DNA of 64,000 nt from Cenococcum geophilum (Eukaryota). Below are positions 4,828 to 35,208 of the stretch, piece after piece. The first letter of the stretch is position 1. Each line of letters starts with the position of its first letter. The notes under the pieces are model-generated. The model was not told the origin of the DNA. It saw only the letters and a list, made by a program, of their open reading frames with translations, and ran no database searches. The stretch covers positions 13,640,001-13,704,000 of the forward strand of contig CP158635.1 in NCBI GenBank assembly GCA_050273025.1, written 5' to 3'. The translations under genes were made by a program, and so were the position numbers.

Positions 4828-6435
4828 CAGGTGCAGAGTCCGATTTCGACGGCCTTAAAAGGTATATATTAGATAAGACAGTAGGAGGTTTTATCTATAT
4901 TCTATCTACGTCCTAAAAGACACAGTTAGATAGATAAGGGGCGAAGAGTTTTGCTAGCGTTTTAAAAGTATTATATAGGGAGCTAGTTCTCCTCTAGAGA
5001 AGAATTAGCAATTAGTCTTTAAATAAAAAAAGGTTAAAAAGCATTTACCCTTTATTACGTAAAGCTCGCTCTACCTAACTTATCTTCTACTTACCTATAA
5101 CTCTTATTCTATACTGTTAATTATATAATTATATATTCCGGTTAAACTGGCCTTTTATACCTAAATATAGCGAATAATAAAGAAGCACATACTCCTCTAT
5201 AAAGGCTTTAAATATCTTAGAGGTAATAGAGCCTTAAAAGATAAGGTAGCTTAAATATCTATTAACTATTAAGGCTAATAGAAGGCTCCATCTCTCTAAC
5301 CTTTTAAGTAGGCGTACTATACCACGTATAGTCCCTTTTAGCGACTAGCTGTACTTCCTATTACTAGTCCTCTTATTTGCTACTAACTTATTAGGAAATA
5401 TAATCTACTCTACTATTTAGCTTTTTTAGATACTAATTTAGACGTTATAAAGGAAAGCGCTAATTGCCTTCCGTAACTATTAAGCGCTCTTAAAAATATA
5501 GTAGATAGTTTAAATAGAGACTTAGGTATTAAATTCGTTAAATAGAAAAGCCTATATCTTATCTAGATACGCGGTAAGCTGATCTTTAAGGTAGTTAAGA
5601 AGCCTCTATATAAGTAGTTAGCAAAAATCTTAACACTATAACATTATCCCTTACTATTTCTTAGTATGGTAGTAGAGCTCTTAGTCGCCTAAGAATAATA
5701 GTAGGAGGCGCGTACGGTTTGCCCTAAATATTAAGGTTTAGTCACATCTTATAAACCGTCTTTTTAGCTACTTTTACTGCAGCTGCGGTAGCTGCTATAT
5801 CCTTATTGGCTTTAATTTAAATCCTAATTCTATAAACAACTTTATTAAAAAGGCGGCGACCTATATTAATCTTAATTGCGGTAGTTAAAATTAAAAGAAT
5901 TACCCCATGTAATAAAGCCTTATAGGAAATACTACGGTGGACTTATTAATGGGCTGGGTATATAGGTATAGAATAGTCAACAATATAAACATAACTGATA
6001 GAGTGGTTGCCTAATAGATTAACTCTAATTATATTCTAAGATTTACTATAAGGAGAGAAGAACTATCTAGGTAGGGACCGTGGTCCTTTAAATATATAAC
6101 CATACTCCTAAGAAATCCTCTTTATACGTAAGGTATGTCTTATATATAAGGTACATAGGTTCCTCTTATTCCTTTTGTTTAATACGTAGCACGTTATATA
6201 AAATTAGTTACTATTCCTCGTTATATGGTTCTATTGGCTCTATTTTAGACCGTACCTTAATTAACTAACTAGCTGCTTCTAACTCCTCTCCTAGTAGTTA
6301 TAATATTGTACTTAAAGCGTCCGTAATACTATTTCCCTCCTTTTTATCTTTGTCCTTAAAGACTTTTAATATCTTTAAGTTATTTACTAGAGGTATAATA
6401 TCCATCTAATTAGTTTGGTTAATATTATCGCTTTT

Positions 6436-9400
6436 ATACTTAAAGCTCCTTCTTTTTATACGCCTAACGTTATGCTTATACCGTTGCTGCAATATTATCA
6501 CTTAGTAAGATTATACTATCTCTGTGTTCTTGTTATATAAAAGAGGGGTTAGTCTATATTACGTTAGCGAGTCTATCCTCTTAATAACTGTCCTTTTACT
6601 TAGAGTGCACTAAAGCGAATATTTATTTGTCCTATAACGTTCGCTCTACTTCTAATGCTAAATATACGCGTTCTATTACTCTTAATAGTCGTCTAGTTCC
6701 GTAGTTAATTTGCCTTAGGGTCTTATATTTAATCTGCTGCTACTTATCTTAATGGCAAGTTATCTTAAGCTTTTACTAAATTAGAATACTTTTATAATGC
6801 GGAACAGAAAGCCCTAAATACTTATATTACGGTGTCTGCTTAATTACTTCGTCTTAAGAAGGTTTATAAGAAGGGTTATTTTAAGAAGTAAAAACTTATA
6901 AAATAAGGTTTAATGAACTGGATCTGAGGATAAAAGAATGAATATAAATCTATTAAATCTATCTATGACGAATATAGGCCTTTATATAGGCCTACACCTA
7001 TAAAGTCGTAAGTGATTGCTTATGGACGCCGTCCAGAAAGGAATCAAAGGGAATCTGCTTATGTAAGCAGGCAACGAACGTGGAGGACTCTTCCAGAACC
7101 ATTATTACACCCCCTAGTACTCCACCAAAATAGAAGCAGATCCTTCCTAAATTAGTATTAAACTTATTAATATACAAAAGAAACACCTTATAATCCTCCG
7201 AGTGTATTATAGGTCTTATTTAACCTCTCCCTAAGCTGTAATCGATTACTCGTTACGAGCTCTCTACATCGTTCCCGTCCCCCATTTAAAAGTCGTCAGC
7301 ATTAGTTAGAATCGTCAAATAGCGTACCCTCTAAGGTTTTACCGACCTGTGTATGATTTCCTACTTAGGTTTAGTATCTATGTCGCATTAAACGAGGCCT
7401 AGCTGCTTAATGAAGTTCCTAAACTAAGTCGTCAACAGTGGCTTCGTAAAACCATCTGCTACTATACTGCTTATAGGAACGTGCTATAGGTAGATTACAC
7501 CGCTTTGAACCTTATTACAAATGTAGTGCCAGTATAGCTTAAAGTGCTTAGTACGCGCGTGGTAGTTATCACTTTTAGCAAGACTAATAGCTGGTTAATT
7601 GTCGCCATATAAATGTATTGGTAATAGATCCTTTCCGGTATAGCCTAAATTAGTAAGTAATTAACGGAGCTATAAGGCTTCCTTGGCCGCATACGTCATC
7701 GCTATATACTTAGCCTCTATAGTAGAGGTCGTAAGAATTAACTGTTTACTTAACTTGTATGAAACTAGGCCACCCGCTAGCTTATAGATATAGCTAGAAG
7801 TTAACTTCCTATTAACTATATCCGCGAACGCTGCATCGCTATAGCCGTATAGCTGTAGGTCAGGTATATTATCTAGTGCGCTTCCGCCATACTCCCTATT
7901 GCAATTAGGCGTAGTATAGTCCGTAGCTAACGCCTCGGCGAAAGCTTTTGGAGGTGGCTACTGCCCTTAGGGTAAGCCGAACTCTATACCTAAGTTAATC
8001 GTCCCTATATAGTAGGCGAGTATCTACATCGCGGCATCCATATATAGTTTAGTAGGGTTATATAGGAACTGACAGAGCTTTCCTACGGCCTAGGCCACAT
8101 TAGGCCAAGTCTAATTTTATAGATATAGTAGAAAGCCTATTAGCGATTAATACTGTTTTACTAGCTCCTGCGGAGCTTAATCCTTAAGCTTACGTAGCTT
8201 AAAGTCTACCGCGGAGGGGTAAATTGGTGTAGAGGCCGGTGCGTAATCCTCTATATGGAATATATATAAGATCTTCCTAATATAGGCGTCCTGTACCAAT
8301 CGAATTAATCGCGCTTAGCGGTTCCGTATAATTTAAATACCTAGGTAGTACGCAATTAGGCCTAAGTCTTTTACTTTATACTTATTCCTAAGTGCTTCTT
8401 TAAGCAGTTTAATCGTCTGTATGTCTCGTCTAATTAAGATAAAATTGTCGACGTAGATGATAATAATTTGGCCGCTTTACTGGCTAACAAAGACGTATGG
8501 GTTAACTGGAATTGGCATATATTTAAGGGTAATAAGGAAGCTCTTAAGCTCCTTATACTAAAGATGTGGCGCCTACTTAAGACCGTAGAGAGCCTTAAGC
8601 AGTAGGCCTATAAGAGTAACGCCGTCCTTCTAATACTGGCGGTATCCTTCTGGCAGCTAAATGTAGATGTTCTTACAGTTAAGCTTCCCATTAAGGAAGG
8701 CCGTAATTACATCTAAGTGCTCGCACTCTAGATCGTACGCGGTAACTAAGGCTATTAGTAGCTTAAATGTACTTGGTCGAACGACGCCTACAAACGTGTC
8801 GCTATAGTTAATTTCTGGGCGCTGCTTATTACCGCGTAGTACCAGTCTTGCTTTCTATCTAAATAGGACGTTGTTTTTATTAAATTTGTATATAAAGACC
8901 TACTTAATAGGTAGAGCCTTAGCTCTAGGCGGAAGTTTAACGATCTTAAATAAGATATTCACTATTTAAGACTCCCATTCCTTATCCGCCGCAGCCTTCC
9001 ACTCCTTCTCGAATATTGAATTTATGGCTTCCTTCTAGTTTCGTAGCTCCGGAGGTAGTCCCTTAGTTATCCTTATCTACTAAGGCTGCGATAAAGTACT
9101 TATAAATGTGTAGGCGAAGGACGGGGTAAGGTAGGTAGCCTTTATGGCTAGCTCCTTCCTTCCAGTCCTATAGAGTACGCTATAGTTAAGCCATAGCTTT
9201 AACCGTGTACGAGTATTTGCTATAGGTTTATCGTCCTCTTCTAAATACTTAGTTAAAATCTGTTCCAGATCCTCCTAGTAGACGTCCCTTAGGGGAGTCT
9301 CTTCCTAACAGAGGTGTCCTCCTAGATTAGGTAGCTCTTGCTAGTCAAGGCCTACCTGTTCGTCGTTAGTAAGGGGAGGTCGATTAAGCTGCGGTATGAT

Positions 9401-12400
9401 ATTGTAATTGCCAGAGGCACCCCCCGATTAAGAGTTACCCCCCAACTACGAGGCCCGAGAGACTTTATCTGCCTTCTACAGTGACCGAGCAGCCTTACTT
9501 CCTTCCTGTAGTGACTAAGAGACCTTACTTCCTTCCTGCAGTAACTAAGAGACCTCTAGTGCAGTGTCTTCGGTAGGAAGTTCCTTAAATAGTATCTAGC
9601 AGATATCGTTGTTACCACCTTCTTCTTCACTAATTGGTGTAGTAAGAAAGGTTCCTAATTTATTAAAAGTGACGCTACTTAATCAAACGACCCTGTTCTT
9701 ATAAGGTAGATAAACGCGATATATATATAAACCTTTATAGCTAACTAATCGTCCTTTCTAAGCTCTTATAACGAACTTATTACCCTATTGCCGCTAAGGG
9801 TCTTTTTTATTAATATAAACGTAGGCGGGACAGCTATAGATCTTCTAGTTAGCGTACGTAATTATAAAATCAGTATTACCTAGGGCGAAAGCTATTGCTT
9901 AAGCGGGCGGAGCTTTGTCCTTATTAACTAATATAGGCAATATATTAAGCCCGTATACGGCTGCCTTGGCGACTTTAAGCTAGAGCTTTAGTAGTAATTA
10001 AGTCTTAATTAACATTACCCTAACCCTTTCTTTAACTAGGTAGTTGGCCTTCTCTGCTATTCTATTCTGGTGTGTAGTATACAGGGTAAAGGCCTCAGTA
10101 AGTATACCTTCATCCTTAAAGAAATCGGTTATGTCCTTACTAAACCACTTAGCAGCTCCATCTAATCGGAAGCAGCCAATCGTTATCCCTGTTTAAGTCT
10201 TAATTATATAGACGAACTGCTTTAAGGTAGAGGCCGCGGAGCCTCTATTTAATATATAGTAGATCCATCTAAAGCGTGTTTAGTTATTAGTAAATAGTAT
10301 CCAGTACTTCTTACCGTGAAGACCTTTATATTTTAATGGCCTAACCATATTAACATGCACCTTTTTAAATATGCGATTGCTACGTCGTTAAGGGCGTCTT
10401 AATATTTGCTTCTTAGCCTTTCTAAGGTAATAGTCCTTATAGTGAAATGGCTTATCCTTAGTAACTATAATCCCCTTTATATTTCTGGCGAGGAGACGTA
10501 TCTAATTAGAAGGAAGGTGTTATAGTCTCTTATACTAAGTCTCTATAGTAGCTTTGGCAAGCACGCCTTTCTTATAAAGGCGTAATTGTGCGGTAGCCAG
10601 AGCCATTGCGAAAGGAACCTTCGTAGGGTTGTCTACCAGTATAAACATATTAAGTCCGTTAATATATAGGATATAGGCTATTTCTGCCCAATCTTTAACG
10701 AAGTTAATCGTATTATAGAGACCGTTAAAGAACGCGCCCTTCCTACGTAGAATATTAAGCGAAACGACATTCGTAAAGAAGTTAGGATAGTGATATACTT
10801 CAGTAAATATAATTATATAGGCTAAGTGGTTAGTTCGGGCGACTATAAGCTTAACTAATCCAACGCCAATAGCCTTTATTAGACCTCCTCCTATCTAAAT
10901 TTAGAGAGGTTTAATTTCCTTATACTGCACGAACTTCCTAATATCATTGCCTATATAAATATTCGAGTAACTATCGGCTATCTAGGAGTCCTTAATATTC
11001 GTTCCTAAAGCTATAGCTGCTAGCCTAATAACCTATGTAGTAAAGATCGATCTAGTTGCCAAATTGGTAGCTTAAGAGGGGTAATTAGATGTCCCCCTAG
11101 AGGCCTTATTAGTAGTTATTAAGGCTCCTCCATTACCTAAGCGCGAAGGTCGTCTCTCTCCTGGTCTCCACTATTCGTGCCTTAGGTAGGCGTACTTCAT
11201 CCAGCAGCCCTCCTCGCCACCTAGATAACCTAGCTTATACCATCCACACTTATTTAAAGCATCCTTAGTAGGGCCTTAATTGCCTAATAAGGCACCGCGG
11301 CTGGCTCCCCCACCTCTGCCGTGACTATTACCGCGACTACAACTATTGCCGCGTCCTTAACCGGAGTTACCTAGTGGCCTATTAACTAAGGCGAAGGTCT
11401 TAGGTAAGTCCTTCCGCCAGGCCTCGTTAGTGAGGTCAGCGATTAATTAGGGTAGTGACATTGTGTAGCCGTCGCGAATCTTATCTTGTTGGATTTAAGC
11501 CTACATAGGGAAGTGTTCGTCGACGGCGTTAATAAATTAATAGTTAATAATCTTATTATCTAGGGCAAGCTTTACCTGCTTAACTCCTTAAACCGCTTCT
11601 TAGTAACAGCTTAAGAAAGTAGTAATTACTTAGTCTAATTAATAGCGGAGCTTAACGAAAGTCTTCTATATATTAGCCTTATAAATTAAGCCACGGGCCT
11701 TAAACGTCTGCTTAAGGTAATTAATGTAGTCCTTTGCTAACTGCTTGTGCTCTAAGGCAGTAAGGATCTCATTATTAATTATACCAAGGATAACTAAACA
11801 GACTTTGCCGTCTTCCTTATTGTACTATTTAAGCTCCTTATTATACTCGTTAAAGAGTGCCTTATTAGTTAAGCGAATTAAATCATTAGTATCCGCAATA
11901 ATTTAAAACCTCTTAAGGATCTCGTCTCACTCCTCCTTGCCGGCGTCCTTTAGTACTCAATCAATAGATATTGTAGGTTTTTCTTCCTGGAGCTTTAGGT
12001 AGAGTAGGGCCGCATCTTCTTAAATAATATGCAGAAGGCCCTCACCACGTAGGTACGTGCTAAGCTGGGTCCAATATTGGGGCTAATTTAAACCGTCTTT
12101 CTTAAGGCGTTGAATGCCTGGATAGTCTTTACCCATAGCGACGCGTAAATAAAAGGATTTAATGCGTAAATAAACGGATTTAACGCGTAAAAAGAAAACG
12201 ATTTTAACGCGTAAATTTAATAATAGGAAATAACTTTATGCGCAGGTGTGGTCACCTTTAATGCGGCCTTTAGTAAGGCGTTAAATGTAGAGCAGTAAGA
12301 TATGACCTAGCATGGGTATAGTAACCCTTGATGCAACCTATAGTAAGGTGTCAATCTTCTAATGTTGTAGCTTGGTAGCAACGAGTGCTTATAACCTAAT

Positions 12401-12780
12401 AAACTAGATCTAAGGATAAAAGAATGAATATAAATCTATTAAATCTATCTATAACGAATATAGGCCTTTATATAGGCCTATACCTACGGAGTTATAAGTA
12501 ATTGCTTACGGACGTCGTCCAGAAAGGAATTAAAGGGAATCTGCTTATGTAAGCAGGCAACGAACGTGGAGGACTCTTCCAGAACCATCGTTAAGGTTTG
12601 TAGGAACTTGGCGATAAAAAAACGGATTCTTTTTTATCCGAAAAGGAAATAGATTTAAGTAGTTCGGCAACTGCTCTTCTTAGGTCCCCCTTAAGTAACT
12701 TATTTTTTTTAGCGATTTTTCTTTATTAATACTACCTGACCTAATCTCTTTTGATACTTCTATACCTTTCTTATAGCGTT
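6436..12780 (+). pseudogene. Antisense accessory ORF of Gypsy B (Zn2Cys6-like plus coiled coil), split by the Copia at 6911-12593
   Basis: Homologous to 22910-23561, with the Cys pattern and intron position conserved after de-RIPing. Confidence 0.6.
6911..12593 (-). mobile_element. Full-length Ty1/Copia retrotransposon (LTRs 6911-7107 and 12397-12593; gag-PR-IN-RT-RH ~12136->7190), RIPed
   Basis: 197-bp LTRs; TSD aggtt/aggtt; PBS GGTTATAAGC; PPT ctagggggtg; minus-strand motifs HLDVITAFLNG, ALYGLKQAP and IIIYVDNF (RIPed YVDD). Confidence 0.95.
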
Positions 12781-15700: not shown

Positions 15701-16553
15701 ATAAGGTAATGTTTAAACCACTTAAGTGCCCTTCCTGTTAAGAATAATCCTACGTAAGCGACTTGATCTATAGGCGTTCCTAGTTTTACCCCTTCCTATA
15801 TAACTTTAAAGTGTATTTATATAAGGAATCCTTTAAGTTTTAACTTCTCCCCTAAGAATCGCTTAATTAAGAGTAGCTTAACCTTAGCTGCTCCGATTCC
15901 ATTAATCCTTTCTTTAAGTATCCTATTATTATCTATTAATCGATTAACTATTTCTTATAGCTATCCAATAGTAACTGGTTGTGAGTTAGTATTTACTATA
16001 CTAGTGTGATTACCTAATCCTAAGGTAGTCGCCGCTGTGGACGCCGTCGTGGCTGCTGCTTTTGGTAGTATGTTGTTTAACTTCTTTTACTATAACCTTA
16101 GTAGTAAATGTGTAATAAAGCCTTGTAGGAAATACTACGGTAAACTTATTAATAGGCTAGGTATATAGGTATAGAATAGTCAATAACGTAAATATAACTA
16201 GTGGAGTGGTTACCTAATAGATTAACTTTAATTATATTCTAAGATTTACTATAAGGAGAAAAGAACTATCCAGGTAGGGACCGTGGTTCTTTAAATACAT
16301 AACTATACTCCTAAAAAATCCTGATTATATATAAGGTACGTCTTATATATAAGGTACGTAGGTTTCTCTTATTCCTCTTATTTAATACGTAGTACGTTAT
16401 ATAACCTTAGTTACCATTCCTCATTATATAGTTCTATTGGCTCCATTCTAGACCGTGCCTTAATTAACCAACTAGCTGCTTTTAACTCCTCTTCTAGTAG
16501 TCGTAACATCGTACTTAAAGCGTCCGTAACACCCTATATATAAATTTTAGTAG

Positions 16554-16852: not shown

Positions 16853-18133
16853 TAGTGCTAAGATATTAGTCTCCTAATATATAAATTCTTACTAAAATTA
16901 ATATAACTTTAAATAATTATATAACACCGCAGTAATTAAATTAAGCTAAATTAGTATATAGATTATTTAATTATAATTAATACTTTATTTACTAGCCGTC
17001 TACTTTTTTTTACTACCTTTAGCCTTTATTTTATATTATTAATTGGGCGCTATATAAGGCTTTAATTAAGGGCTATCTACGCCTCCTTATATACCTTAAC
17101 TAAACACTTTAAATCCTTTATTTTATCTATTTAAACTTTAAATAAAGCTTAAAACCCTTTCTTTTTAGTACTAGCTAAAGATATTTAACTAGATTTAAAT
17201 TAGGTAAATAAAGGAAAAAAATTAAGGTTTAAATACTATACCTTTTTAACTACTCCCTTATAAGTTTTAATATATAAATTAAAGCATTATCTATCTAGTA
17301 AATATTTAAAGGCTTATATATTGGTATAAAACCGTCTTTTAAGGCCTAGATATAGCTTTAAGCGCTATAGCCATATTTTACTATTAAAGGATCCCTTTCT
17401 ATAGTAATTAACTCTAAGTAACTATTATACTAAAAGTAAGCGTAAACTATCTATAAGATCCTTTTTATTAAACACCTCTTTAATAAATTTATAATGCTAC
17501 TTTTATAAAGATGTTTAAAAGACCTAAATAGGCTTTTTTTCTAAGCCACGTTTATAAAAATATTTATTAAAAAACTTAACTTTTTTAAGGCAATTCCTTA
17601 TACTTCTAAGCCTAATAAAGCCTTAATTAAGCTGCTGCTAGCGTTAGCTTTGGTTTTTTTTTGCACGTCAGTTTATAATATAGTGTTTTTTTTTAAAGAA
17701 ATAGTATAAAGTTCTATATAAAACGGTAACTCTTATAACTTAGTACTTAAGAGCTATATAGTTAATTTAGGGGTGTATATATATAATTTAAATAAGCAAA
17801 CGCTTTTAGTATTAGGTAAGCTTTTTAGGCTCTTTAAGTCTTAATAAAGATTTAAGCGTATAATAGTTTTTTTATTAATTAATTATATTATAAACAGTTA
17901 ACTAATTTACGCGATATTCTATAGTAATTTTAAGCTTTAAAACCTTAGCCTCTAACGTAGTAATAATTCTAGCTCTTATAGTCTCTAAAAGCTTAGCTTT
18001 AGGCCTTTTATTTTTACTAATTTTAGTACTAAATAAGTGTTATATTATAGTATAAAAAGGTTATAATCTTTATATTAGAATTTTAATAATTGTGATTTTA
18101 TATTTATATTAGAAAACTAATATCTTAGCACTA
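16853..18133 (-). mobile_element. IS630/Tc1-mariner transposon, copy 1 (1281 bp), heavily RIPed
   Basis: TIRs (C/T)AGTGCTAAGATATTAGT, TA TSD, de-RIPed DNASIH and PYSPDLNP motifs on the minus strand. Confidence 0.88.
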
Positions 18134-18566: not shown

Positions 18567-18759
18567 TATAACCGACTACCAGACCTTGCATATTACCCTG
18601 TTTCACCTGCGTCAGCACTACCCTCGTATGTCTCAGATACGTTAGAAATGAGTTATAGGCTTTGGAGTTCGGGGTCTACTTTTATATATTTATATCACTT
18701 GATTTCCATAAATTTACAATTAAGTTACTTATTCAATTCCACACACTGCAAAGCTTATA
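18567..18759. mobile_element. Solo LTR inserted in the Tc1 copy 2 TIR
   Basis: tataac...cttata (RIPed TG...CA) with 5-bp TSD gtttc/gtttc. Confidence 0.75.
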
Positions 18760-21700
18760 GTTTCCTAACATAAATATAAAATCGCAATTATTAAAATTCT
18801 AATATAAAGATTATGGCCTTTTTATACTATAATATAACGCTTATTTAATACTAAAATTAGTAAAAATAGAAGGCCTAGAGCTAAGCTTTTAGAGATTATA
18901 AAAGCTAAAATTATTACTATATTAAAGGCTAGGGTTTTAAAACTTAAAATTACTATAAAATATTATATAAATTAGTTAATTATTTATAATATAATTAATT
19001 AATAGAAAAACTACTATATACTTAAATTTCTATTAAGACCTAAAGATTTTAAAAAGCTTACCTAATACTAAAAGCGTTAATTTATTTAAATTGTATATGT
19101 ATACTTCTAAATTAACTATATAGCTTTTAAGTACTAAATTATAGGGGTTACTATTTTATATAAAACTTTATACTATTATAGTGCTGTAATAAAGTAGACT
19201 AAATAACTATGTTATAGTATAAAGAGGGGAAGAAGGTGGAAAGGGGGTATTATATATAAATAGTAGGGCTAGCCGCTAAGTCACTAGTGGTGGGCTAGCT
19301 AATAGTAGGAAATAGTATACATTAGGTTAGTGCCGTAACAGTACTCCTTTCCCCTAGATAGTTTAGTCCCTAAACTAAATGGATAACTTAAAAATAGGCA
19401 GTATACGGGGTTGCCTATTTTTTACTGCAAAGATATTAGTTCTACTTACTACCCTTAACTAAGCTAATAGTGATTTTCTATACCGGGTATAGAAAATCCT
19501 AATTGGTTAGTTTAGTAAGTAAGGTTGGTAGAACTTTATACTACTACCTAAATCAATCCGCATAGCGTTTCTTAGCAAGAATTTAGCTAATTAAATAACT
19601 TTAACCGTTGGTTAAAGTTCTATAATATCTTAACTACCACAAATTTTAATACGGTGGTCAGCTATGACCTTAGCGTGACTTTTCCTTATTTTATACCTAG
19701 TCTGGGGTTTTTAGCTTCTTAGGGTATTACTTATAGAAGCGCTATATAGCTTGTTTATAACCCTTTAGGTTTTCCTTTAGCTACTAGGTTATATCCTTAT
19801 AATATTTCCATTTAATCTTATAAGTTAGGCCCTAGGGGTCTTCGTTATATATATTAAGGATTTTCTTAAACTCCTATTTATCTTCTATATTGCCGTTATT
19901 ATCTCTTTCTACCACTCGTCCTTATATATTACGGCGCTCTATAGTATTAATATTTGCTTAGCTAGGGATCTCTTTAGTAGCCTAAAGGCGGACCTTAAAT
20001 ATATAAAAGGATTTATTTACTTAGATGTAGTTTAGAAGGTTTACTATAACTACCTTTTAGTATACTGCGAGTACGGGGTATAGGCCGTCCCATTTATCGT
20101 CCTATTTCTTCTTAAATCTATTTATCTTTATATTTTCTAAGCTAACTATAACTATATTGCCTTTGTAGAATAACGCGCTCTTATTCCTATAGGTATTAGT
20201 ATTATCTTTATAGCGTTACTATAAAATCTAGGCTAGGGCCTTAAGCTGTATTAATATCCGCTTAAAGCAGTTAGCCATAGAGTCTGCGTGGAAGAACTCC
20301 TTCTTTACTTATATTAATAGTGTTAGTAAGTAGGGGCTAGTAGGCTCGATTTTGAGGTAAGGGTTAAAGCTATAGTTTGCAAAAAATAGGGAGATGCCTG
20401 TACTCTTGTTAACTTAGTTATTTATAGCAAACTTAGTAGGCGGTAGGTAGTTAACCTAGTTGTCCTATATAAAGCTAACAAAAGTATAAAGGTATTTATT
20501 TACGGCAGCGTTAATAATTTTAGTTTAGCCGTCCGTTTTTAGGTGCTAGGCTAAGCTTAGTCACAAGATTGTCTTAAGGCGTTTACTTAGTTATTACTAG
20601 AAGTCGCTAATAAATTATATGCCGCGATTAGAAATAATCGTGCTTAGTATATTATAGAGCTTATATACGTTATTAATAAAGCTATTAACTAGCTCCTTTA
20701 TTAAGAGTCCTATTACTAGAACAAGGTATTATATTTTAGTTAAGTGGTCTATAATAATAAGGATATATTTATATGCCTTGCCGTGGCGTTAGTATACTAG
20801 TAGCGTTATAATATAGTTAATTAAGATATTGGTTTATGGGCGGGTAGGTAATTTTAATAGCTTTAGAAAACCGAGCGGGGTAGAATAAGGGGTCTTAGTA
20901 TAAATATATAGGGTATAGTTTTTAATTAAGGTAGCCGTAAACTAGGAGATTCCTAGCTACTAGTATATTTGGTTTAAGAGGTTAAAAGTCTTAACCTAGT
21001 TAGGGTAATTAGTAGGGTTACTACTATAAAAGTAATAGGTAACTTCTAGGTGGAGGTTTAGGGTATTAGGGATAAAGAGACGTTAGTAGAAGTAAATCTA
21101 TCTGTTAATAATACTATATTTTAATTTATTATAACGAAGTAATTTCTTAATCTTTTTTAGCTAATAGCGAGCTTTCCAATTACGTAGGGCTGTTACTATA
21201 TCTTTTACAAGTTTGTTCTTCTAGTATCCTAGCTAGATTAACTTATCTAGTAACTTTTTAGCTATTTTAGGGTTTAAAGCAGCTATAAACTCCGCGTTAT
21301 TATAATTATGGGACTTATATAGTAATTCTTTTAAGATTATAGGGTTAACTTTCTAGGGCGGTATAATGACTTAGGCTTAGTAGCGGAGGTGTTTATTATT
21401 AGCGTCCTTAGACCTTATTCTTAGTAGCTAGCTTAGGGTATTAGGGAGCGTAGCTTTGCTTTTAGGTCTATATATAATTATAAAGTTAAACTATAAAAGG
21501 AACTCTGCCTACTAGACTTAGTGCTAATTTAGCTACTTAGTAGTTATAAACGTCTATAGGTTCTTATAGTTGGTAATAATTTTAAATAGCTTCTTAGTCC
21601 CTTATAGCTTAGGACGCTATTCCTTTAAAGCCTTAATAATAGCTAAGAGTTCTTTATTATAGATCTTATAGTTATACTCTAGCGTAAAGTACTTTATAGA

Positions 21701-22136: not shown

Positions 22137-22380
22137 TAAATAAATTATTAGTAGAAGTTCGCGAAGCTAAGAAATTGTTATAGTTCTTTAATTAATATCG
22201 GGTCCTTTTATTTCTGTAAGGCCTATACCTTCTTAGGGTCTATAGTTATGCTATTAGTTAAGATAATTAAGCCAAGGTATTTTGTTTTAGTAAAGTAGAA
22301 CTTAGACTTATTAATATTAATCTAAAGTCTAGTATTACCGAGTCTTTAGATGACTTTATTTATATACTTAGTATACTTAG

Positions 22381-25300
22381 TATAACGGAACCTTGTAGTA
22401 AGAACTACGATAAGTTCTATTAATGGGCTAGGTATGTAGGTATTGTAAGTAAGTCAACAACGTAATAACAACTGGTGGAGTGGTTGCCTAACAGATTAAC
22501 TTCAATTATATTCTAAGAATTACTACAAGAAAGGAACTATCTAGGTAGGGACTAAGGGTCTTAAATACACAACCGTACTCCTATAAAATCCTTCTTATAT
22601 ATAATGTACGTCTTATATATAAGGTACGTAAGTTCCTCTTATTCCTCTTATTTAATACGTAGTATATTATATAACCTTGGTTACCATTCCTTATTATATA
22701 GTTCTACCGGTTCCATTATAGACCGTGCCTAAATTAACCAACTAGCTTCTTCTGACTCCTCTTCTAGTAGTTGTAATATTGTACTTAAAGCGTCCGTAAC
22801 ACTATCTCCCTCCTTTTTATCTTCGTCCTTAAAGATTTAAAATATCTCTAAGTTATTTACTAGAGGTATAAGATCCGTCTAATTAATTTGGTTAATATTA
22901 TTACTTATTATACCTAAAGCAATTTCTTCTTTACACGCCCAACGTCGTGCCCGTACTATTGCTGCGATATTATCTCTTAGTAAGATTATACCGTCTCTAT
23001 GTTCTCGTTATATAAAAGAGGGGTTAGTTTATATTACATTGGCAAGTCCTTCTTCGCAACAACTATTCTCTTGCTTAGAGTGCACTAAAGCAAATATTCA
23101 TTTGTCCTATGACGTTCGCTCTACCTCTAATGCTAAATATGCGCGACCTATTACCCTTAATAGTTATCTAGTTCCCTAATTAATTTATCTTAGGGTCTCG
23201 TGTTTAATCTACTGCTGCGCAGCTAGATAGTAAACTGTCTTAAGCCCTTACTAAGTTAAAATATTCTCGTGATGCGGAACAGAAGGCCCTAGATGCTCGC
23301 ATTACGGCGTCTACTTAACTGCTTCGTCTTAAGAAGGTTTATAAGAAGGTTTATTCTAAGGAGTGGAAGCTTATAGAACAAGGTCTTTAGGAACTGGGTA
23401 ATAAGAGAACTAACTCTCTTTCTGTAATAAAGGGAACAACTCTAAGTAGTTCGGCAGTTGCTCTTCCTAGGTCCCCCTTAGGTAACTTATTCTTTAATAC
23501 TCCTTTCTTATTAATATTGCCTAACCTATTTTCCTCCAATACTCCTATACCTTTCCTATAGCGTTTCTTAAATTCTCTAGTAGCTCCTAGGTAGTCTTAG
23601 TATAGCCTATCTACTTAACCTCGTACTATGTTTCGTTGTTAATGTCCTTATGGCTAACAATCTTCAAAACTTGCTATTTGTCTTCTTCTTGTCCTCTATA
23701 CATGTCTGCCTCATAGGCTAATAGCTCCACATTCCCATGCGCTGGCTTTAGCATTGCGATATACTATATAGGGTAGATTTTTATTTTGGCTAGTAGGTCT
23801 AATTTAAACGTAACTGGTGAAATTCTCTATGTAATTTTAAAAGGTCCTAGTCTGACGTAATCCAACTTCTTGCTTAGTTGTTAACTTTTAAAATTTCTGT
23901 ATAGTAGCCATACTTTATCTCCCTCCTTAAGATCTGGTCCCTTAGATCTCTTAGCATCGTAGTATTTTTTTATTCTTTACTGTACTACCTTAGCTATTTC
24001 CGTAAGGTTTGCATAAAGATTTATTAAAGTCTCTATTCTTTACTTAGCTCTACTACTTATCTTCTTTACTTAACGTGGCGATAATAATGTCCTTAGTTTA
24101 TATCCGTAATTCGCCTTAAATGGTAACGTACCTATTTCTTCTTATAGTGTTATATTATATGTAAATTGTATAATTAGTAATAGCAATACCCAATTATTCT
24201 GTGCATAATTAACGTAATGCCTTAGATACTGTTCTAGTGTCTAGTTTAATCTTTCTGTTTAACTGTCTGTCTGCAGATAATACGCGGTAGAAGTTACTAC
24301 TTAAACTCCTTATTCTGCCAAGAATACCTCCTAAAATACTGCTATAAATCTTGGATCTCTATCCGATATAATTTTACCTAGTGTTCTATGTCTTACGAAC
24401 ACTTCTTTAATATAGATTTTAGCGATATCTTCTGCTGAGATTTCTTCCGTATAGGCTATAAAGTATTCCTACTTTATAAGCTTGTCTACTATTACTAGAA
24501 TCGCGTTATGATTCTGTCCGGTAATAGGATCTCTTAACTTTAGTAACTTAATAATAAAGTCCTATAATATAACCTCCCATGGTCTCTTTAGTATTTTAAT
24601 AGGTTGTAGCCCTCTATATAGCTTATGCCTTATTAGTTTATTTCTTTAGCAATCTAGATACTCTTTAGTGACCTTTCTAGCTATCTTTTAGATTCCGTTA
24701 ATAATATACTCCTCCTAGAGTCTTAATACTAAGCCCGTTACTCTATTATGTCCTTAAGTTAGTTCCTTATAGAATTCCTCTATAAACTACTCTGCTATAC
24801 TCTTTGGGATATACTTTGTTTTTTGGTTTTCGTATATATCTAACTATAGATCTTCTAGTTATACTTCTAGAATCCTTTATACCTAAAAGCTTTCTAGTAT
24901 CTTATAAACTTTTTCTAACTTATTCTCTTAAGTTACTGCAATCTTTAAATAATTATACCTAATCAATCCGTCTGTGTCTTTTCGTAGTAAAGCCCCTAAT
25001 GGCTTATCGTTATTTTATAGTTTAGTCTTTCTACTTAAAGTATCCGCTTATACGTTCTCTATTCCCTTAGTATACTAAATTTTAAAATAGTATTCTATAA
25101 GCATCTCTGCCCATCTAACCTATCTTTAATTAAGTTCCTTTATTATTAGGAATCCTATTAGGTTCTTATAATCCGTTTTAACTATAAATGGTTTTTTTAT
25201 ACCTTGTAAGAATGCTTTTTATTTTTTTAGTGCTGTAACTATACCTAATAACTCCTTGTTATAGATGTTATAGTTTAACTCTAGTGGTATTATCTTTTAA

Positions 25301-28300: not shown

Positions 28301-30383
28301 TCTTAAGAATCTTAAGCCTTTGGCCTTTTGCCTTTTTTAAGTGGTGAGCTAGCACTAGCAGTCGTCTGCTTACTTAATTATCTCTAGATATTACTCCTTC
28401 CGTCTTATAAAGCGATAGATACCATATCTAATAGTGTTATAATACCCGTTACTAAACCTTGCTCTATGGTGGTCTTAGTCTCTACTTTTATTATATTATT
28501 AAGGTTTAGATACCCCTAGTTAGTTCTTTTACTATTCTTATTGCTATTAATTAATAAGTACTCTAACTCTATTATTATTATTACTAATCTTTATCCGTAT
28601 ATTACTATAATATCTTAATCTAGCTTATAGAGTCAATCTTATTTTTTATTTAACTCTTTAGTTCCTTTAAGTTCTTTTAACTCTAGCTCTTATAGCTAAT
28701 AGCTTACACTATATTTAGCGTCTTTATAAATTTGGCATGCGTTATTATAACAAAACGCAAAACTTCTAATTAAACATTCTTTTGTTCCTTGCAGCGTATT
28801 ATTATCCCTCTATACATGTGTGCCATATACTGCTAGTCTAGTTCCCTTTACTATATAATGACTCTAACTACTTCTATAGTCTCTGGCGAAATAACCCTGT
28901 TTTCTATAATTTATGCAAGCTCCTTCTTTAAACTATTATTTTTGCTGTAGAGTCCGCTTAAACGTCTTCTGCTACTAAGATCCTTGGTTTGGCCTATACT
29001 CCTTAGTCCTATAATTACTTAATTCTTAACCTTTAGGTTTCTATAGTTTCTTACTCCCTCTCTTATAGGTTTCTTTAGTACTACTTAGGTCCGTTAGCTC
29101 TGCGCCGTACTATAGTTTCTAATTTAGCTTTAGTTATTGCGTGCTCTACGTCTTATATAACTGTGGAACTCTGTCCTAGCCCCTCTTAGCCTATTCCCTT
29201 TAGAAGATCCTATTATTAATCTTAATTACTTAATCTATTAATTCCCTTAGGGTATCCGTATCTTCTATTAGAATAATTACGTCCTAGACTTTAGCCTTAA
29301 GTCCCTATTTATACTATGCTATAAGCGCCTTATTATTCCACTTAAGTTATATAGCTAGCGTTTGGAATTATATCGTGTACTTAATTGCTAAAGTCTGTTG
29401 CGTTAGGTCCTAAAGCTTTCTTTCCGCTATAGTTGTTGCTTCTGGGTCCCCGAACATTTATATAAGTTGCTCTATAAATCTATTCTAGCTTAAAAATATA
29501 AACCGTACTTCTTAGTTTGTTGTTGTTATTCCGTTTACTTATATCTCTATAAGGTAAGGCTTAAACTATTTAAGTGCTTTTCCTAATAAGAACAATCCTG
29601 CATATGCTACTTAATCTATAGTTATTGCTAGCTTTACTCCTTCTTGTGTAACCTTAAAGTGTATTTACATAAGGAATCCTTTAAACTTTAATCTTTCTCC
29701 TAAGAATCTTTTAATTGATAGTAACTTAACCTTTGCTGCTCCTATCCCATTAATCCTATTTTTGAGTACTATATTATCTCCCGTTAACTAATTAACTATT
29801 GTTTATAACTGTTTTACTATCATAGGTTGTTATAAGTTAGTGTTTGCTATACTAGTGTCGTTACCTAATCCTGGCGTAGTTGCCGCTGTTAATGGCGTTG
29901 TGGTGGCTGCTTTTGGTGGCATGTTGTTTGACTTATTAAAACCGTAACCGTGGTAGTGATTGTGTAACGGAACCTTATAGTAAGAACTACGGTGGGTTCT
30001 GTTAATGGGCTAGGTATATAGGTATTGCAAGTAAGTTAATAACGTAATAATAACTGGTGGAGTGGTTGCCTAACAGATTAACTCTAATTATATTCTGAGA
30101 ATCACTATAAGGAAGGAACTATCTAGGTAGGGACTAAGGGTCTTAAATACATAACCGTACTCCTATAAAATCCTTCTTATACGTAATGTACGTCTTATAC
30201 GTAAGGTACATAAGTTCCTCTCGTTCCTCTTGTTTAATACGTAGCATGTTATGTAACCTCGGTTACCATTCCTCGTTATATGGTTCTACTGGTTCCATTA
30301 TGGACCGTGCCTAAATTAACCAACTAGCTTCTTCCAACTCCTCTCCTAGTAGTCGTAACATCGTACTTAAAGCGTCCGTAACA
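22381..30383 (-). mobile_element. Ty3/Gypsy chromovirus, copy C, full length 8.0 kb (LTRs 22381-22801 and 29963-30383); same family as B
   Basis: 421-bp LTRs; TSD cttag/cttag; gag start ~29923 (MPPKAATT), extended gag, PR, RT (YLND, RIPed YLDD), RH, IN and chromodomain. Confidence 0.95.
22910..23561 (+). pseudogene. Antisense accessory ORF of Gypsy C: six-Cys Zn-cluster-like domain, 55-nt intron (23139-23193), coiled coil
   Basis: De-RIPed MPKAISS...PSPCSRCxKEGLVCV...SCSECTKANxxLSCDVRS.SDAE W|SRVQSAAAQLDGELSQALAE...LLRLEKV; the frame is consistent across copies B and C. Confidence 0.65.
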
Positions 30384-33300
30384 CTTAGCGTATATTTTAG
30401 AAAAAATAAGGACGTTATTAAGGTAGGTAGTATAGTAGTTATTAAGGGCGTTATATAGAATATAGTTAATATAATTTTAGAATATAGTAAGTGTATTATA
30501 GAAGCTAAATAGTATAACTAGTATCTTATAAAGTCCGAACTAGGTAATAAATACTATAAGCTACTTATAGCCCTTTATAATCCAGATCCGGTTAAATATA
30601 GTAATTATATTAAGTTTAGTAAAGTACTTAGCACTATAGAGTGCGTTAAGTGTCTTGCGGATTAGTAGCAGTAGGTACCAATTTTTAATAGTAACTGTAT
30701 TTAGGCCTTAGTAGTTATAGTAGATTTATATACCGCCACTAGGCTTAGCGGCGAGGAGGAGTAGTATAGTAGCTAGTAAGGTTAATTTACGGATAAAACC
30801 CTTATCCAGTATCTTATTAATCCACTTCTTTACATACCTAAGTTTAGTAGGTAAGAGTGGTCTATTTTTATAATACGGGGCCTAGTTTCTAGGGGTAATC
30901 TTAATTTTATAGTCCTATAGTTAGTAAGGGGGTAGCTTATCTATATTTTTAGGAAGGAAGTGCTTAATATATTTACAAAACTCCTTTAGTAGGCATTATA
31001 GAATATCTTCGCGGGTTAATCCTAGTTTGCCTTTTAGGAAATTTTTAATATTAGTATTAACTATCTTCTAACATAAAAGCTCGGGTTTAGTTTTTAGATT
31101 TATTTTAAGAAAGTTATAGAAATAGGGGGGGAGTACTTTATAGGCTTTCTTTATTATATAGTTGCCTTCTACTAGCTAGCGGAAAGACCTTTCTAATAGG
31201 TTTGGTACTTTTATTAGGCCTATAGGCAGCTCTTTAAGTAGCTATTAGTGTTTATCTTATTTAACTAGTTCTACTAGCTCCGCTATATAGATCCTTATTA
31301 CCTTTACGTCTTTTTATTTATAGAACTAGGTAAAATTAATAGTATAAGAGTATTTAATATTGTCTAGGTTAGGGCGTATTTAGTTCTCTAGTGCTATAGC
31401 TAGGCTAGTACGGCTTAGTTAGCCTAGGGGGGCGGAAATAAGGCGGTAGCTTTATACGGTATACGCGGGAGATAGATATAAGGTTAGGCGTTATAGTGGC
31501 GCGGTTTCTATTATTTGGGTCTTAGTAGTTTTATAACTAGTCCTTACTATAACGCGGGCTTTAGTATGTATATATAGTATATAGCTTAATTTTAAGTATT
31601 AGGCTAGGCGGCTAGGGTTTAAATAGTACCTAGGTTGGGGTTGGATTCTTAGTAGTGGCGGTATAAAGCGGACCTTCTTTCTTAGTCTTGGTAGGGCTAG
31701 CTAGCCTATTATTTTAGTCTTAAGTACTAAGGTAGTCCAGTCTTCTACTATTTTGTTTCTTTGCAGCTATATAGGCTCCCCTTTATTAGGAACGTCTTCT
31801 ACTATTAGGGCTTTATATATAGTCCTAGGCACTAGGCTTAGTAGTGCTAAGTATCTATATAGGGCGTCCCTACTACTATCAGTTATCCCCTATAAGAGGT
31901 AGTGCTTAGAGTAGTAGTTTAAGTTAAAGCGGATTTTAAGTTTCCTAAAGCTAAAACGGGGCTTATACTTCTAAAGCTAGGGCATACCTAGGATAATTAG
32001 GGTAGTAGGCGAGAATTTAATAATAAAAAAGAGTATAGCTTTAGTATAAAGGCCGATTAATATTTAGGTAGTAAAGTAGTCCGTAATAAGCGAAGATAGG
32101 ATACTGTTTATAAGGCGTAGTGACCTAGGTACTAGCAGCTTCTTAGTTATAATATTATACTTTCTTATAATAGACTCTATGTCGGCAAATGCTATTATAG
32201 TACTACTAGAGTCCACTAGGCTTACTATATTAATATAAACTTAGGGGTATAGGTTACGTAATAAAAAGAGTTAGGTTTAAATAAGGATTAATTTCTTGTT
32301 ACTATTTACTAATCTAAGATTAAATAGTAGCTTACTAATAGAAAGGATTAATTAATCTAATAATAGGGACCTAATCTTCTCGTCTTCCTCCTTATATAGT
32401 TTAAACCCTTAGATATAACTTAGTTTAAAGGTTTACGTTTTAACGACTAGGGTATAAAGCTGTTTTAGCGGGGCGGTCTAATGTCTATCTAGCTAGCGGT
32501 ATTAGTTTTAGTCTTAGTTGGGGTATAGAAAGACAATACCTCGCTAATAACGTAGCTATGTTTATATTCGCTAGCGCGGAATTACTAATACTAGGCGTTA
32601 TTAACGGGTTAGGCTCCTATATAGGGTATAGTTTAGAGTAACTAAGCTATAGGGTTAAAGGGGGGGGGGTATCCGCCGAGGCTATAATAGGCTCCGCGGT
32701 TGCCGCGTTTATAATAGACTCTACAGTCGCTATATCCGCGGTTATTAGTTTACGTCATTTAACGGGGTGGTATTAGAACTGGGTTTACTATCTTAGCGGG
32801 GTTATAGGCGTCTTTTTAGTAGCTAGGCAGGCTATAGGTAAGGTATAGTCTATTATTAACGCGGCGCTTACGCTCCGTATTTAAGATTCTATTAAGGTTT
32901 ATAGGTTCTTTAGTTACTGCTAGGGTTAGAGTTAATATAGAGGTAGGGGCTTAGGTAGGTAGGCAGTGGTTAGCATTCTTTTTAAGGTTGGCTTGGTATA
33001 TATAATTTATAAGGTTTTTAGCAAATATATCTATTTACTTACTCTAACCTATATAGTCGCTATTATTAATTTTATAGGCAAGTTTAAGTACTAGCTCTTC
33101 TATCTTTAAAGAGATAAACTTTTAGAGTAGGTCCACCTTCTATTTATCTATTTTTTAGCGCGGACTATTAGCTTATTAAGCTCTCCCTTCTAGGACTAGT
33201 AATTACGCTCACCCTAGGGGAAATAGTTAAGCTTATTCTTTACAACCTAGGTTATATTAAGGACCTTATAGTAGGTAGTAAGGTCTTTAAGCATATCTTC

Positions 33301-35208
33301 CTTAGTAGGCCATTTCTACGCAGATATGTTGCTTAGGTTCTTATATATAAGCTCTAGGCCCTACTTAATAAACCTATAGGCCTTATCCTTTAGTATATCC
33401 GAGATATAAAGGATCTAGGACTAAACTATATTAAAGTAGTCCCAGTCCCAGTTAAAGACTCCCTTAATCTTAATATACTAGGTTTTAAAATTAGCTTATC
33501 GTTCTAATAGGGTGCCTTTTCCGCTGAATATTGGCGGGTCTTTAGATCTCCGTTTTTTCCGCTAGGTTACTACCGTTATTATAGGGGTTAATTATTTTAG
33601 AACGGCAATAGTCTCTACTTAGGAGTTAATAGTTCCTATCTAGGAAGTAATAAGGGTACTAAGGTTTTCGTTAGCTTTCTTATTAGCGGTGTTTATATTA
33701 TATATATACTATAGTCCTACTTTAATATTATTAAGGAACTCGTTAGTATAGTTAATAAGGGTAAGGTAAGCTTTACTAGGCTTAAAGGTCTTAGGGTATA
33801 GTAGGGAGCGGCAGATTGTTTACGTAATATTAGGGTATATTTTTATAAAGAGGTTTATAAAGACGTTATAGGGGTTTTAGGTTTCGGCTATTTTAGCATT
33901 ATTAGTGTTACCTATTTAGGCGCTAGGTAAAAACTAAGGATTATTCTAGGACTACGCTAGGGACGTGTCGGTTTTAGTAGAGGCGCGCATAGATTGCGAT
34001 TACTCTAGGGCGGAGGTTAATTGGCTAGGGTATAAGGAATTAGTAATTATAACGGGGTGCAAATTAAAGATACTACAAACTGTTATAGTGCTGCAATAAA
34101 GTAGACTAAATAACTACGTTGTGGTATAAAGAGGGGAAGAAGGTAGAAAGGGGGTATTATATACAAATAGTAGGGCCGGCCGCTAAGTCACTAGTGGTGG
34201 GCCGGCTAATAGTAGGAAACAGTACGAGATAGTATGAAACAGTATGCGTTAGGTCAGTGCCGTGACATATACTATCTTTTTAAAAAAACATTATATTATA
34301 AACTGGCGCGCTAATACTAGCGGCAGCTTAATTAAGGCTTTATTAGGCTTAGAAGTATAAAAGATTCTCTTAAAAAAAGTTAAGTTTTTTAATAAATATT
34401 CTTATAAACATAGCTTAAAAAAAGCCTATTTAGGTCTTTTAAACGTCTCTATAAAAGTAGTATTATAAATTTATTAAAGAGGTATCTAATAAAAAAAAAC
34501 TTATATAAATAGTCTATACTTACTTTTAGTATAATAGTTACTTAAAGTTAATTACTATAGAAAGGGATCCTTTAGTAGTAAAAGAAGGCTATAGCGCTTA
34601 AAGCTATATTTAGGCCTTAAAAGATAGTCTTATATTAATCTATAAGCCTTTAAATATCTACTAAATAGATAACGCTCTAATTTATATATTAAAACTTATA
34701 AGGGAGTAGTTAAAAAGGTATAGCGTTTAGACCTTAAAATTCCCCTTTTATTTACCTAATTTAAACCTAATTAAATATTTTTAGCTAGCACTAAAAAGAA
34801 AGGTTCTTAAGCTTTATTTAGAGCTTAAATATATAAAATAAAGTATAGAGAATCTAAAGCGTTTAATTAAGGTATATAAGGAGGTGTAGATAGCCCTTAA
34901 TTAAGGCCTTATACGGCCCTTAATTAATAGTATAAAGTAAAGGCTAAAGGTAGTAAAAAAAGCAGACGACTAGCAGATAAAGTATTAATTATAATTAAAT
35001 AATCTATATATTAATTTAGCTTAATTTAATTGCTACGGCGTTATACGATTATTTAAAGTTGTGTTAATGTCTTAGCACTGTACTCCGGCACGAGTTCACG
35101 GCAACAATACCCCGCCATCACGTGCTTCTATCACCGACTATCTTTATTTTTCTCCTTCTCCGCCTCTCGTCTCCTAGTAGTTCTAAGACGCGGGTCATTT
35201 TTGCTGCA

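Follow-up and report, generated by a model that had tools for sequence, protein, structure and literature searches.

Does a decayed open reading frame (ORF) on the strand opposite to the gag-pol genes of a fungal retrotransposon record a genuine gene of that element and, if so, what kind of protein might it have encoded? We address this question in a stretch of 64,000 nucleotides of Cenococcum geophilum (assembly GCA_050273025.1, contig CP158635.1, positions 13,640,001 to 13,704,000 of the forward strand), hereafter called the window. Self-comparison of the window reveals one long terminal repeat (LTR) retrotransposon in two minus-strand copies, B and C, and an earlier note, made from the sequence alone, had placed in both of them an antisense ORF between the chromodomain and the 3' LTR. 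We consider it probable that this ORF is the remnant of a genuine two-exon accessory gene of an ascomycete chromovirus lineage, destroyed by repeat-induced point mutation (RIP), and we read it as a spliced antisense gene, possibly one of the regulator type.

The antisense gene, its relatives and the strand under selection

In copy C the gene occupies positions 22910-23561 of the plus strand, antisense to gag-pol, with the LTR edge (22801) on one side of it and the chromodomain on the other. The ORF was confirmed in both copies, in the place and with the organization that had been described for it. Its parts are the following:

22910..23138, plus strand: exon 1 of copy C, 76 codons and one base; the start codon ATG is RIPed to ATA, and the frame reads (I from M)PKA...
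23000..23110, plus strand: six-cysteine motif of copy C, C-x2-C-x6-C-x13-C-x2-C-x8-C once RIP is reversed; cysteines 2, 3 and 6 are RIPed to tyrosine
23139..23193, plus strand: intron of copy C, 55 nt, spliceosomal; donor GT RIPed to AT, a branch-like CTAAT, acceptor TAG
23194..23561, plus strand: exon 2 of copy C, GG, 121 codons and the stop TAG (23559-23561); a long helix, then a disordered tail
6436-6663, plus strand: exon 1 of copy B, with a 1-nt deletion; columns mapped from the alignment with copy C
6664-6718, plus strand: intron of copy B, from the alignment with copy C
6719-6910, plus strand: exon 2 of copy B as far as the nested insertion, aligned with copy C and matched by tblastn
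12598..12776, plus strand: the rest of exon 2 of copy B to the stop, from the alignment with copy C and a tblastn match

About 750 nt hold the antisense gene, which overlaps pol. In copy C no stop interrupts the frame of exon 1 between 22883 and 23179, and excision of 23139-23193 fuses a T and a GG into a TGG (Trp) codon; in the window's family the spliced product has 198 residues (229 + 365 coding bases). The cysteine spacing given in the earlier note is right through the fifth cysteine, and the last gap is x8 rather than x9. No third copy of the antisense gene was found by tblastn of the window.

Both copies are dead. In the region of the antisense gene 127 of the 151 substitutions that separate B from C are transitions, and this excess, together with a TpA/ApT ratio of 1.7, is the signature of RIP, which indicates that the host is an ascomycete. 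Tyrosine is the product that RIP (G to A) makes from a cysteine codon. Copy C is non-functional because its start codon, its GT donor and three of its six cysteines are lost and exon 2 contains four in-frame stops, all TAA or TAG and of the RIP type; in copy B a frameshift, more stops and the insertion of a Ty1/Copia element are added, which render it non-functional as well.

A word index returned 44 relatives of exon 1 among 57 candidates and 12 relatives of exon 2 among 15, and a HMMER profile of exon 1, run against 1.84 billion representatives, matched 240 clusters (50% identity) at E<=0.001, 140 of them at E<=1e-10. In 191 aligned database ORFs, which often begin with MPKA or MPP, C or Y occupies the six motif columns in 186/188, 188/190, 189/189, 171/173, 171/173 and 148/151 cases, or 98-100%, as against 5.9% in the non-motif columns, a pattern that chance comes nowhere near producing. 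The database also contains un-RIPed protein pieces: P0206 and P0003 correspond to exon 2, and P0115 runs from the cysteine module into the helix. The last of these, an ORF from a contig of 2113 nt, has the cysteine module joined to the helix without an intron, with Cys-Thr in place of the splice-made Trp; either a genomic variant that lacks the intron or an RNA copy could account for it.

Metagenome contigs scanned with P0206 contain at least 42 loci, one of which (L042, 72% GC) is spurious and was dropped from all alignments. The 43 aligned copies are copies B and C of the window and 41 metagenome loci among the matches listed; among these same matches, every locus other than L037 and the spurious one is RIPed. 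In 39 of the 42 loci among the matches listed, and also in the window, the end of exon 2 is at most 61 nt away from a chromodomain on the opposite strand, and in most cases no more than 8 nt away. The exceptions are L039 and L040, which end too early downstream, and the spurious L042. Judged from this constant neighborhood, the antisense gene is a fixed part of the element and no captured passenger of a single copy. The earlier note was also correct that its end overlaps the end of pol, since the antisense stop codon falls within the stretch that codes for the chromodomain, some 10 codons in.

The signals that define the gene can be followed over the 43 rows. The start codon is ATG in 5 rows, ATA in 35 and something else or a gap in 3; the six cysteine codons are TGY or TAY with a single CGT as the sole exception; and the stop is TAG in 40 of 43. 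The proposal that a 55-nt intron restores the frame through a Trp codon is well supported, for the junction reads TGG in 41 of the 43 aligned copies and canonical splice signals are found in three lineages. The donor is GT in 11 rows and its RIP product AT in 31 (other in 1), and the acceptor is AG in 40, AA in 2 and GG in 1. An intron of 55 nt is shared by 36 copies of the window's family; L037 has one of 64 nt, L028 one of 127 nt, and L036, L038 and L039 have 130 nt each, and in L013 a deletion has left 33 nt. The exons on either side of this length-variable intron align without trouble. Splice signals that are kept while the length varies freely are what one expects of a real intron. The sense transcript serves as the element's genomic RNA, so that an antisense intron is not removed before reverse transcription and is inherited with the element. 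This point, which the earlier note had made, is sound established knowledge, and the canonical splice signals kept in three lineages are consistent with it.

The un-RIPed metagenome locus L037 (GC 50%, TpA/ApT 0.60) permits the gene to be read directly. Its exon 1, of 74 codons, has an in-frame stop followed by an ATG at 950, and all six cysteines are present in the arrangement C-x2-C-x6-C-x13-C-x2-C-x8-C. The intron begins at 1173 with the donor GTACGT and has a CTGAT 10 nt ahead of the acceptor TAG, and exon 2 stops with TAG at 1619-1621. The examination of splice sites and cysteines in un-RIPed relatives, which had been proposed as a check, gave a favorable result: L037 keeps the ATG, the GT donor, the TAG acceptor and the six cysteines. 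Further un-RIPed relatives were sought with L037 exon 1 in genome contigs and with P0115 in viral contigs, and none was present among 600 candidate stretches and 77 candidates, respectively. The comparison of copies shows that the gene has been kept in its position, start, stop, splice signals and six cysteines over at least three diverged lineages of the element.

A RIP-corrected consensus of about 850 nt was derived from 33 copies of the window's family and compared with L037 and with the consensus of the L028 group. Left out of the 33 copies were L007, L021, L033, L034 and L041, which are more diverged, and L028, L036, L037, L038 and L039, which belong to other lineages. Exon 2 was divided into 2a (23196-23399) and 2b (23400-23558), and differences were counted by antisense codon position 1/2/3:

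Exon 1, family consensus and L037: 26/10/39, p=0.0002
Exon 1, family consensus and L028 group: 19/12/42, p=4e-5
Exon 1, L028 group and L037: 24/15/28, p=0.14
Exon 2a, family consensus and L037: 17/19/34, p=0.027
Exon 2a, family consensus and L028 group: 13/15/34, p=0.0015
Exon 2a, L028 group and L037: 10/17/38, p=7e-5
Exon 2b, all three lineage pairs: no codon-position bias, p=0.4-0.8

The ratios of nonsynonymous to synonymous divergence (dN/dS), calculated between the family consensus and L037, were these:

Exon 1: antisense frame 0.21, minus-strand mirror frame 0.26
Exon 2a: antisense frame 0.41, pol frame 1.06
Exon 2b: antisense frame 0.59, pol frame 0.34

The dN/dS values of exon 1 cannot separate the two strands, because there the open sense frame is the mirror frame and shares its wobble positions with the antisense frame. 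The second antisense position of exon 1 nonetheless varies least, with 10 differences where the first has 26 (binomial p=0.011), as in real genes, whereas a sense-coded mirror frame would give the opposite pattern. The periodicity of exon 2a can have no source other than antisense coding, because what the antisense frame reads there as third positions are second positions in the open sense frame. The dN/dS test that the earlier note had suggested was favorable to the antisense frame in both exon 1 and exon 2a. In L037 the match to the Chromo domain ends about 30 nt inside the antisense ORF, which accounts for a nearly invariant antisense C-terminal motif. From these patterns of substitution we conclude that the antisense gene was once a functional coding sequence under purifying selection, whose tail overlaps the true end of pol.

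The predicted protein and the rival explanations

The spliced mRNA would encode a protein of about 198 residues, composed of a short N-terminal helix, a six-cysteine module, a helix of about 75 residues and a disordered tail. To judge from the motif, two zinc ions are probably bound by the module, as in a Zn2Cys6 cluster, of which the consensus is C-x2-C-x6-C-x5-12-C-x2-C-x6-8-C. AlphaFold2 (AF2) models exon 2 as a single helix (residues 2-77) in which 67 residues reach a predicted local distance difference test score (pLDDT) of at least 90, followed by a tail below 50. Leu, Ile and Val show a local spacing of 3-4 in this helix, and it may pair with a second copy; a two-copy prediction of residues 5-75 of P0206, which speaks neither for such pairing nor against it, scored 0.43, and one unrelated control scored 0.62. 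The succession of Cys6 module, linker and long helix resembles the architecture of GAL4, with the Zn2Cys6 label applying at the level of the motif only.

Several observations weigh against reading the locus as a spliced antisense gene for a protein of this type, and they concern both the protein and the gene. The zinc-cluster assignment stays below the Pfam cut-offs: un-RIPed exon 1 of L037 matches PF00172 (Zn_clus) with 13.4 bits (E=0.089, positions 2-32 of 39), where the cut-off is 21, and PF12511 (DUF3716) likewise with 13.4 bits (E=0.073, positions 8-59 of 59), where it is 22, and these two are the best Pfam matches of the un-RIPed domain. The third cysteine gap, of 13 residues, exceeds the Zn2Cys6 range of 5-12 by one, the other gaps being in agreement with it. 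A family profile had no match at E<=10 in the Protein Data Bank, and a search there with a single sequence gave chance-level matches to C2H2 fingers only. The AF2 model of the cysteine domain is poor (mean pLDDT 60, about 50 over the cysteine region), from an alignment of 81 rows that are mostly RIPed. A continuous heptad register in the helix is not significant, as 1596 of 5000 shuffles reach the observed occupancy of the a and d positions. Of the GAL4-type label in the earlier note the six-cysteine motif therefore stands, and the family assignment falls short both on the PF00172 score and for want of a matching solved structure; of its heptad-rich helix, the long helix is retained and the continuous register is not.

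On the side of the gene, no complete un-RIPed version was found at the DNA level, exon 2 of L037 having a 1-nt frameshift near 1325. This frameshift is relative to all other lineages, and there are several more in the pol of L037, so that either this copy or its assembly is imperfect. Longer proteins (182-2000 aa) were sought with the un-RIPed exon 2 piece P0003 and none was present among 1026 candidates, which means that no gene caller on record had joined the exons. Finally, the last third of exon 2 (exon 2b, 23400-23558) shows no codon periodicity and its pol frame seems the more constrained, much of the L037 region is also open in the sense (pol) frame, and the intron lengths would suit a translated sense frame.

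Among the rival explanations the one that survives best accepts the gene and questions the protein. It holds that the module is not GAL4-like and is instead a DUF3716-type or other zinc module that might bind RNA or Gag, target integration or counter silencing; we regard this as a serious, if rather doubtful, possibility. The DUF3716 match equals that of Zn_clus in score and covers nearly the whole profile, which makes it, as a lead from sequence, as good as Zn_clus for the cysteine module. When the 81 family members are searched, Zn_clus is the most frequent weak match (E<=1 in 3, none at the cut-off), and DUF3716, itself sub-threshold, appears at E<=1 in L037 alone; the RIPed window copy has no Pfam match. 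In the ESM Atlas the nearest clusters to L037 exon 1 and P0115 are unnamed Ascomycota proteins with scores of at most 0.85, and one neighbor cluster, at 0.78, carries DUF3716 in 28% of its members, which we take as a lead only. The family has few basic residues between the second and third cysteines, and its third loop is 13 residues long; that the family profile matched no solved Zn2Cys6 structure fits this alternative as well. A class II transposon of Zymoseptoria tritici encodes DUF3716 proteins, according to a passage in PMC8232023.

A second alternative, which we judge improbable, is that both strands code, with a pol tail that was translated from the chromodomain through the antisense gene toward or into the 3' LTR. 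The pol frame of L037 does remain open for 142 codons past the chromodomain, with its stop (1194-1196) inside the antisense intron, and a second minus-strand ORF (733-1338) shares its phase, such that the repair of one 1-nt indel would give a single frame into the LTR; Pfam found nothing in this minus-strand tail. When codons were shuffled over L037 1316-1618, about the last 100 codons of exon 2, 3.7 stops were expected in the pol frame and none is present (P=0.011), a mildly surprising outcome. In exon 1, by contrast, where the open minus frame is the mirror frame, codon shuffles expect 0.43 stops and a frame without stops is unremarkable. In exon 2b the lower dN/dS (0.34) belongs to the pol frame, but in exon 2a this frame appears neutral and its second codon position is the most variable. 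All stops that remain in the minus frame of the de-RIPed consensus (TAA, TAG or TGA) could have been made by RIP from sense codons, and some align with Q, R or W of L037. The intron lengths of 55, 64, 127 and 130 nt are all 1 modulo 3, so that every difference in length is a multiple of three; this reflects some three independent length changes, for which the chance is about 1 in 27. The openness of the L037 pol frame and the modulo-3 pattern together keep dual coding in contention, on the strength of one un-RIPed sequence.

The weakest alternative confines conservation to the sense strand, or to a cis-acting nucleic-acid signal close to the polypurine tract, and takes the antisense ORF and its cysteines for by-products. 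It can draw on the open sense frame over the same DNA in L037, on the low dN/dS of both mirror frames in exon 1 and on the chromodomain helix beneath the conserved antisense C-terminal motif, but we consider it very improbable, as it leaves unexplained the conserved ATG and TAG, the canonical intron of variable length, the TGG junction in 41 of 43 copies and the six invariant cysteines, the variability of codon positions in exon 1 is the reverse of its prediction, and the periodicity of exon 2a is incompatible with the open sense frame.

Expression and possible function

If the locus is, as we favor, a spliced antisense gene, it would have had its own antisense transcript from a putative promoter in or beside the 3' LTR. 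About 108 nt, the polypurine tract included, separate the antisense ATG from the edge of the LTR, and we would for this reason place the putative promoter in the short leader or in the U3 region of the 3' LTR. In L037 the U3 of the 3' LTR (637-699) contains seven GTACGT repeats in 63 nt, and the locus contains ten where 1.08 are expected. The cluster lies 250-310 nt upstream of the antisense ATG and, in the sense direction, just upstream of the TATTTAAGG box; such a position could make it a candidate bidirectional enhancer. The LTR of the window has RIPed TACGTA remnants at about 22600-22680. A CCAAT box that the earlier note had read at about 22879 is ruled out as an ancestral promoter element, since 39 of the 43 rows carry T at position 22880 and 2 carry C.

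HBZ of the human T-cell leukemia virus HTLV-1 is the product of an antisense gene that is driven from the 3' LTR, has a spliced form and encodes a protein with a dimerizing helix that acts on viral transcription. By analogy with HBZ, with the antisense ORFs (aORFs) of plants and with the nuclear protein of Grande that a passage of PMC11963269 cites, our best guess, held tentatively and at somewhat less than even confidence, is that the protein acted in the nucleus, where it bound nucleic acids and regulated the LTR of its own element. A more specific version would make it a fungal counterpart of HBZ: a spliced antisense zinc-cluster transcription factor that bound the LTR, perhaps at the GTACGT or at CGG repeats, that switched the element between silent and active states or shielded it from silencing by the host, and that was kin to the DUF3716 proteins of transposons, the sense pol tail being possibly translated too. 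We think this unlikely as a whole. If it were true, fungal transposons of both classes would share dedicated Cys6 regulators, which could be relatives, or even the source, of the host's Zn2Cys6 factors.

The element in its window and the known systems

The entire window is AT-rich (GC 27-41% in 2-kb bins). The ends of the two copies and their associated features are these:

22381..22801, minus strand: 3' LTR of copy C, from a self-BLAST pair (22380-22803 and 29962-30385, 90.3% identity), with ends TG..CA(TA)
29963..30383, minus strand: 5' LTR of copy C, from the self-BLAST pair and a reading of the end sequences
22376-22380 and 30384-30388: target-site duplication CTAAG of copy C, 5 bp
22802..22830, minus strand: polypurine tract adjoining the 3' LTR of copy C, as read in the sequence; its plus-strand face is part of the leader of about 108 nt before the antisense start codon
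23530..23680, minus strand: chromodomain-coding end of pol, from the minus-frame translation; it overlaps the last 10 or so codons of the antisense gene
5908-6329 and 16111-16532, minus strand: LTRs of copy B, with target-site duplication TAGGG/TGGGG
6911..12597, minus strand: Ty1/Copia element nested in exon 2 of the antisense gene of copy B, with 192-bp LTRs (6911-7102 and 12397-12588) and RVT_2 at 155 bits

As in Ty3/Gypsy elements, copy C has a 421-bp LTR pair of about 90% identity, TG..CA ends and a 5-bp target-site duplication. When its minus strand was translated with stops as X, Pfam gave RT_RNaseH (73 bits) and SH3_Tf2-1 (36 bits) above the cut-off and RVT_1 (23 bits) and Integrase_H2C2 (19 bits) below it. 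The RIPed window copy itself has no Chromo match in Pfam; its relative L037 has one of 41.7 bits, against a cut-off of 25.1. Because of the pol domains in the window and the Chromo domain of L037 we classify the host, from its domain content, as a Ty3/Gypsy chromovirus with the pol order reverse transcriptase, RNase H, integrase and a C-terminal chromodomain.

The nested Copia element has far fewer stop codons than its Gypsy host and is for that reason younger or less RIPed. Elsewhere in the window there are direct repeats at 40269-40489 and 53309-53529 (221 bp, 93%, 13 kb apart) and, within this pair, at 42481-42669 and 48633-48821 (189 bp, 91.5%, 6.2 kb apart), both of which resemble the LTR pairs of other nested retrotransposons. 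Inverted repeats occur at 17700-18130 and 18747-19177 (431 bp, 88%, about 600 nt apart) and at 16897-17708 and 34268-35068 (about 810 bp, 86%, 17 kb apart).

Only rarely has an antisense accessory gene been described in an LTR retrotransposon, the known cases being those of a few plant lineages and of Boty in Botrytis. Gene callers seem never to have assembled the present one, because RIP and the intron split it into small ORFs. For annotators this means that short "hypothetical" ORFs rich in Cys or Tyr in AT-rich fungal DNA can be wrecks of this antisense gene. Fungi are easily transformed, and an active member of the family would permit direct tests of the function of an antisense transposon gene. 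Full-text searches of the open-access literature, which leave subscription journals mostly outside their coverage, gave no paper in which Zn2Cys6 is connected with any LTR retrotransposon's antisense gene, and no description of this antisense protein.

Passages in PMC7264820, PMC11963269 and PMC8365987 report extra antisense ORFs between pol and the 3' LTR in the plant elements Grande1, RIRE2, Retand and PvRetro13 and in Boty of Botrytis and Sclerotinia, where the gene is called brtn; in the passages concerned, two reviews give their function as unknown (PMC7264820, PMC11963269). The closest in setting is brtn, since Boty is likewise a fungal Gypsy element with a chromodomain and, between pol and the 3' LTR, an extra gene that runs in the direction opposite to gag-pol. 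This likeness is drawn from citing passages (PMC8365987, PMC7264820, PMC4227169, PMC5987419) rather than from a comparison of sequences, and the name "brtn-106" in one of them (PMC4227169) hints at a shorter product. A Monilinia transcript is reported to match the truncated Pol and the BRTN of Boty-like elements (PMC5987419).

The plant genes of the aORF-3R class (Grande1, RIRE2, Retand/TRP28, PvRetro13) share the place and orientation of ours within Ty3/Gypsy elements and, in the passages of PMC7264820 and PMC11963269 that treat them, are conserved across copies and predicted to bind DNA, with no known function. The window gene, too, runs against gag-pol in the interval from pol to the 3' LTR and is conserved as coding sequence across lineages. 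The plant genes differ, according to the same passages, in that they belong to non-chromovirus lineages, have regions of several kb between POL and the 3' LTR and contain other domains (TRP28, PF04195).

With regard to function the closest analogy is HBZ of HTLV-1, which, however, is a bZIP protein of a vertebrate retrovirus with neither sequence relation nor zinc module in common with the window gene. A passage of PMC11963269 mentions the antisense genes of HTLV beside the plant aORFs.

With regard to the protein, PF00172 of the GAL4 type offers the same order of six cysteines (C-x2-C-x6-C-...-C-x2-C-x8-C), a short linker, a long helix and a fungal range; the window family differs from it in its third gap of 13, its fewer basic residues between the second and third cysteines and its score of 13.4 bits against 21. 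DUF3716 (PF12511) is similarly a fungal Cys-rich domain, of about 60 residues and linked to transposons, in the available passages of PMC8232023 to the class II transposon REP9 of Z. tritici, whose proteins carry it; here the differences are the class of transposon, the context of the gene and a score of 13.4 bits against 22. Antisense genes in this part of the element are thus already known, and what the present locus adds to them is a spliced version with six cysteines in a large fungal chromovirus family (240 related ORF clusters).

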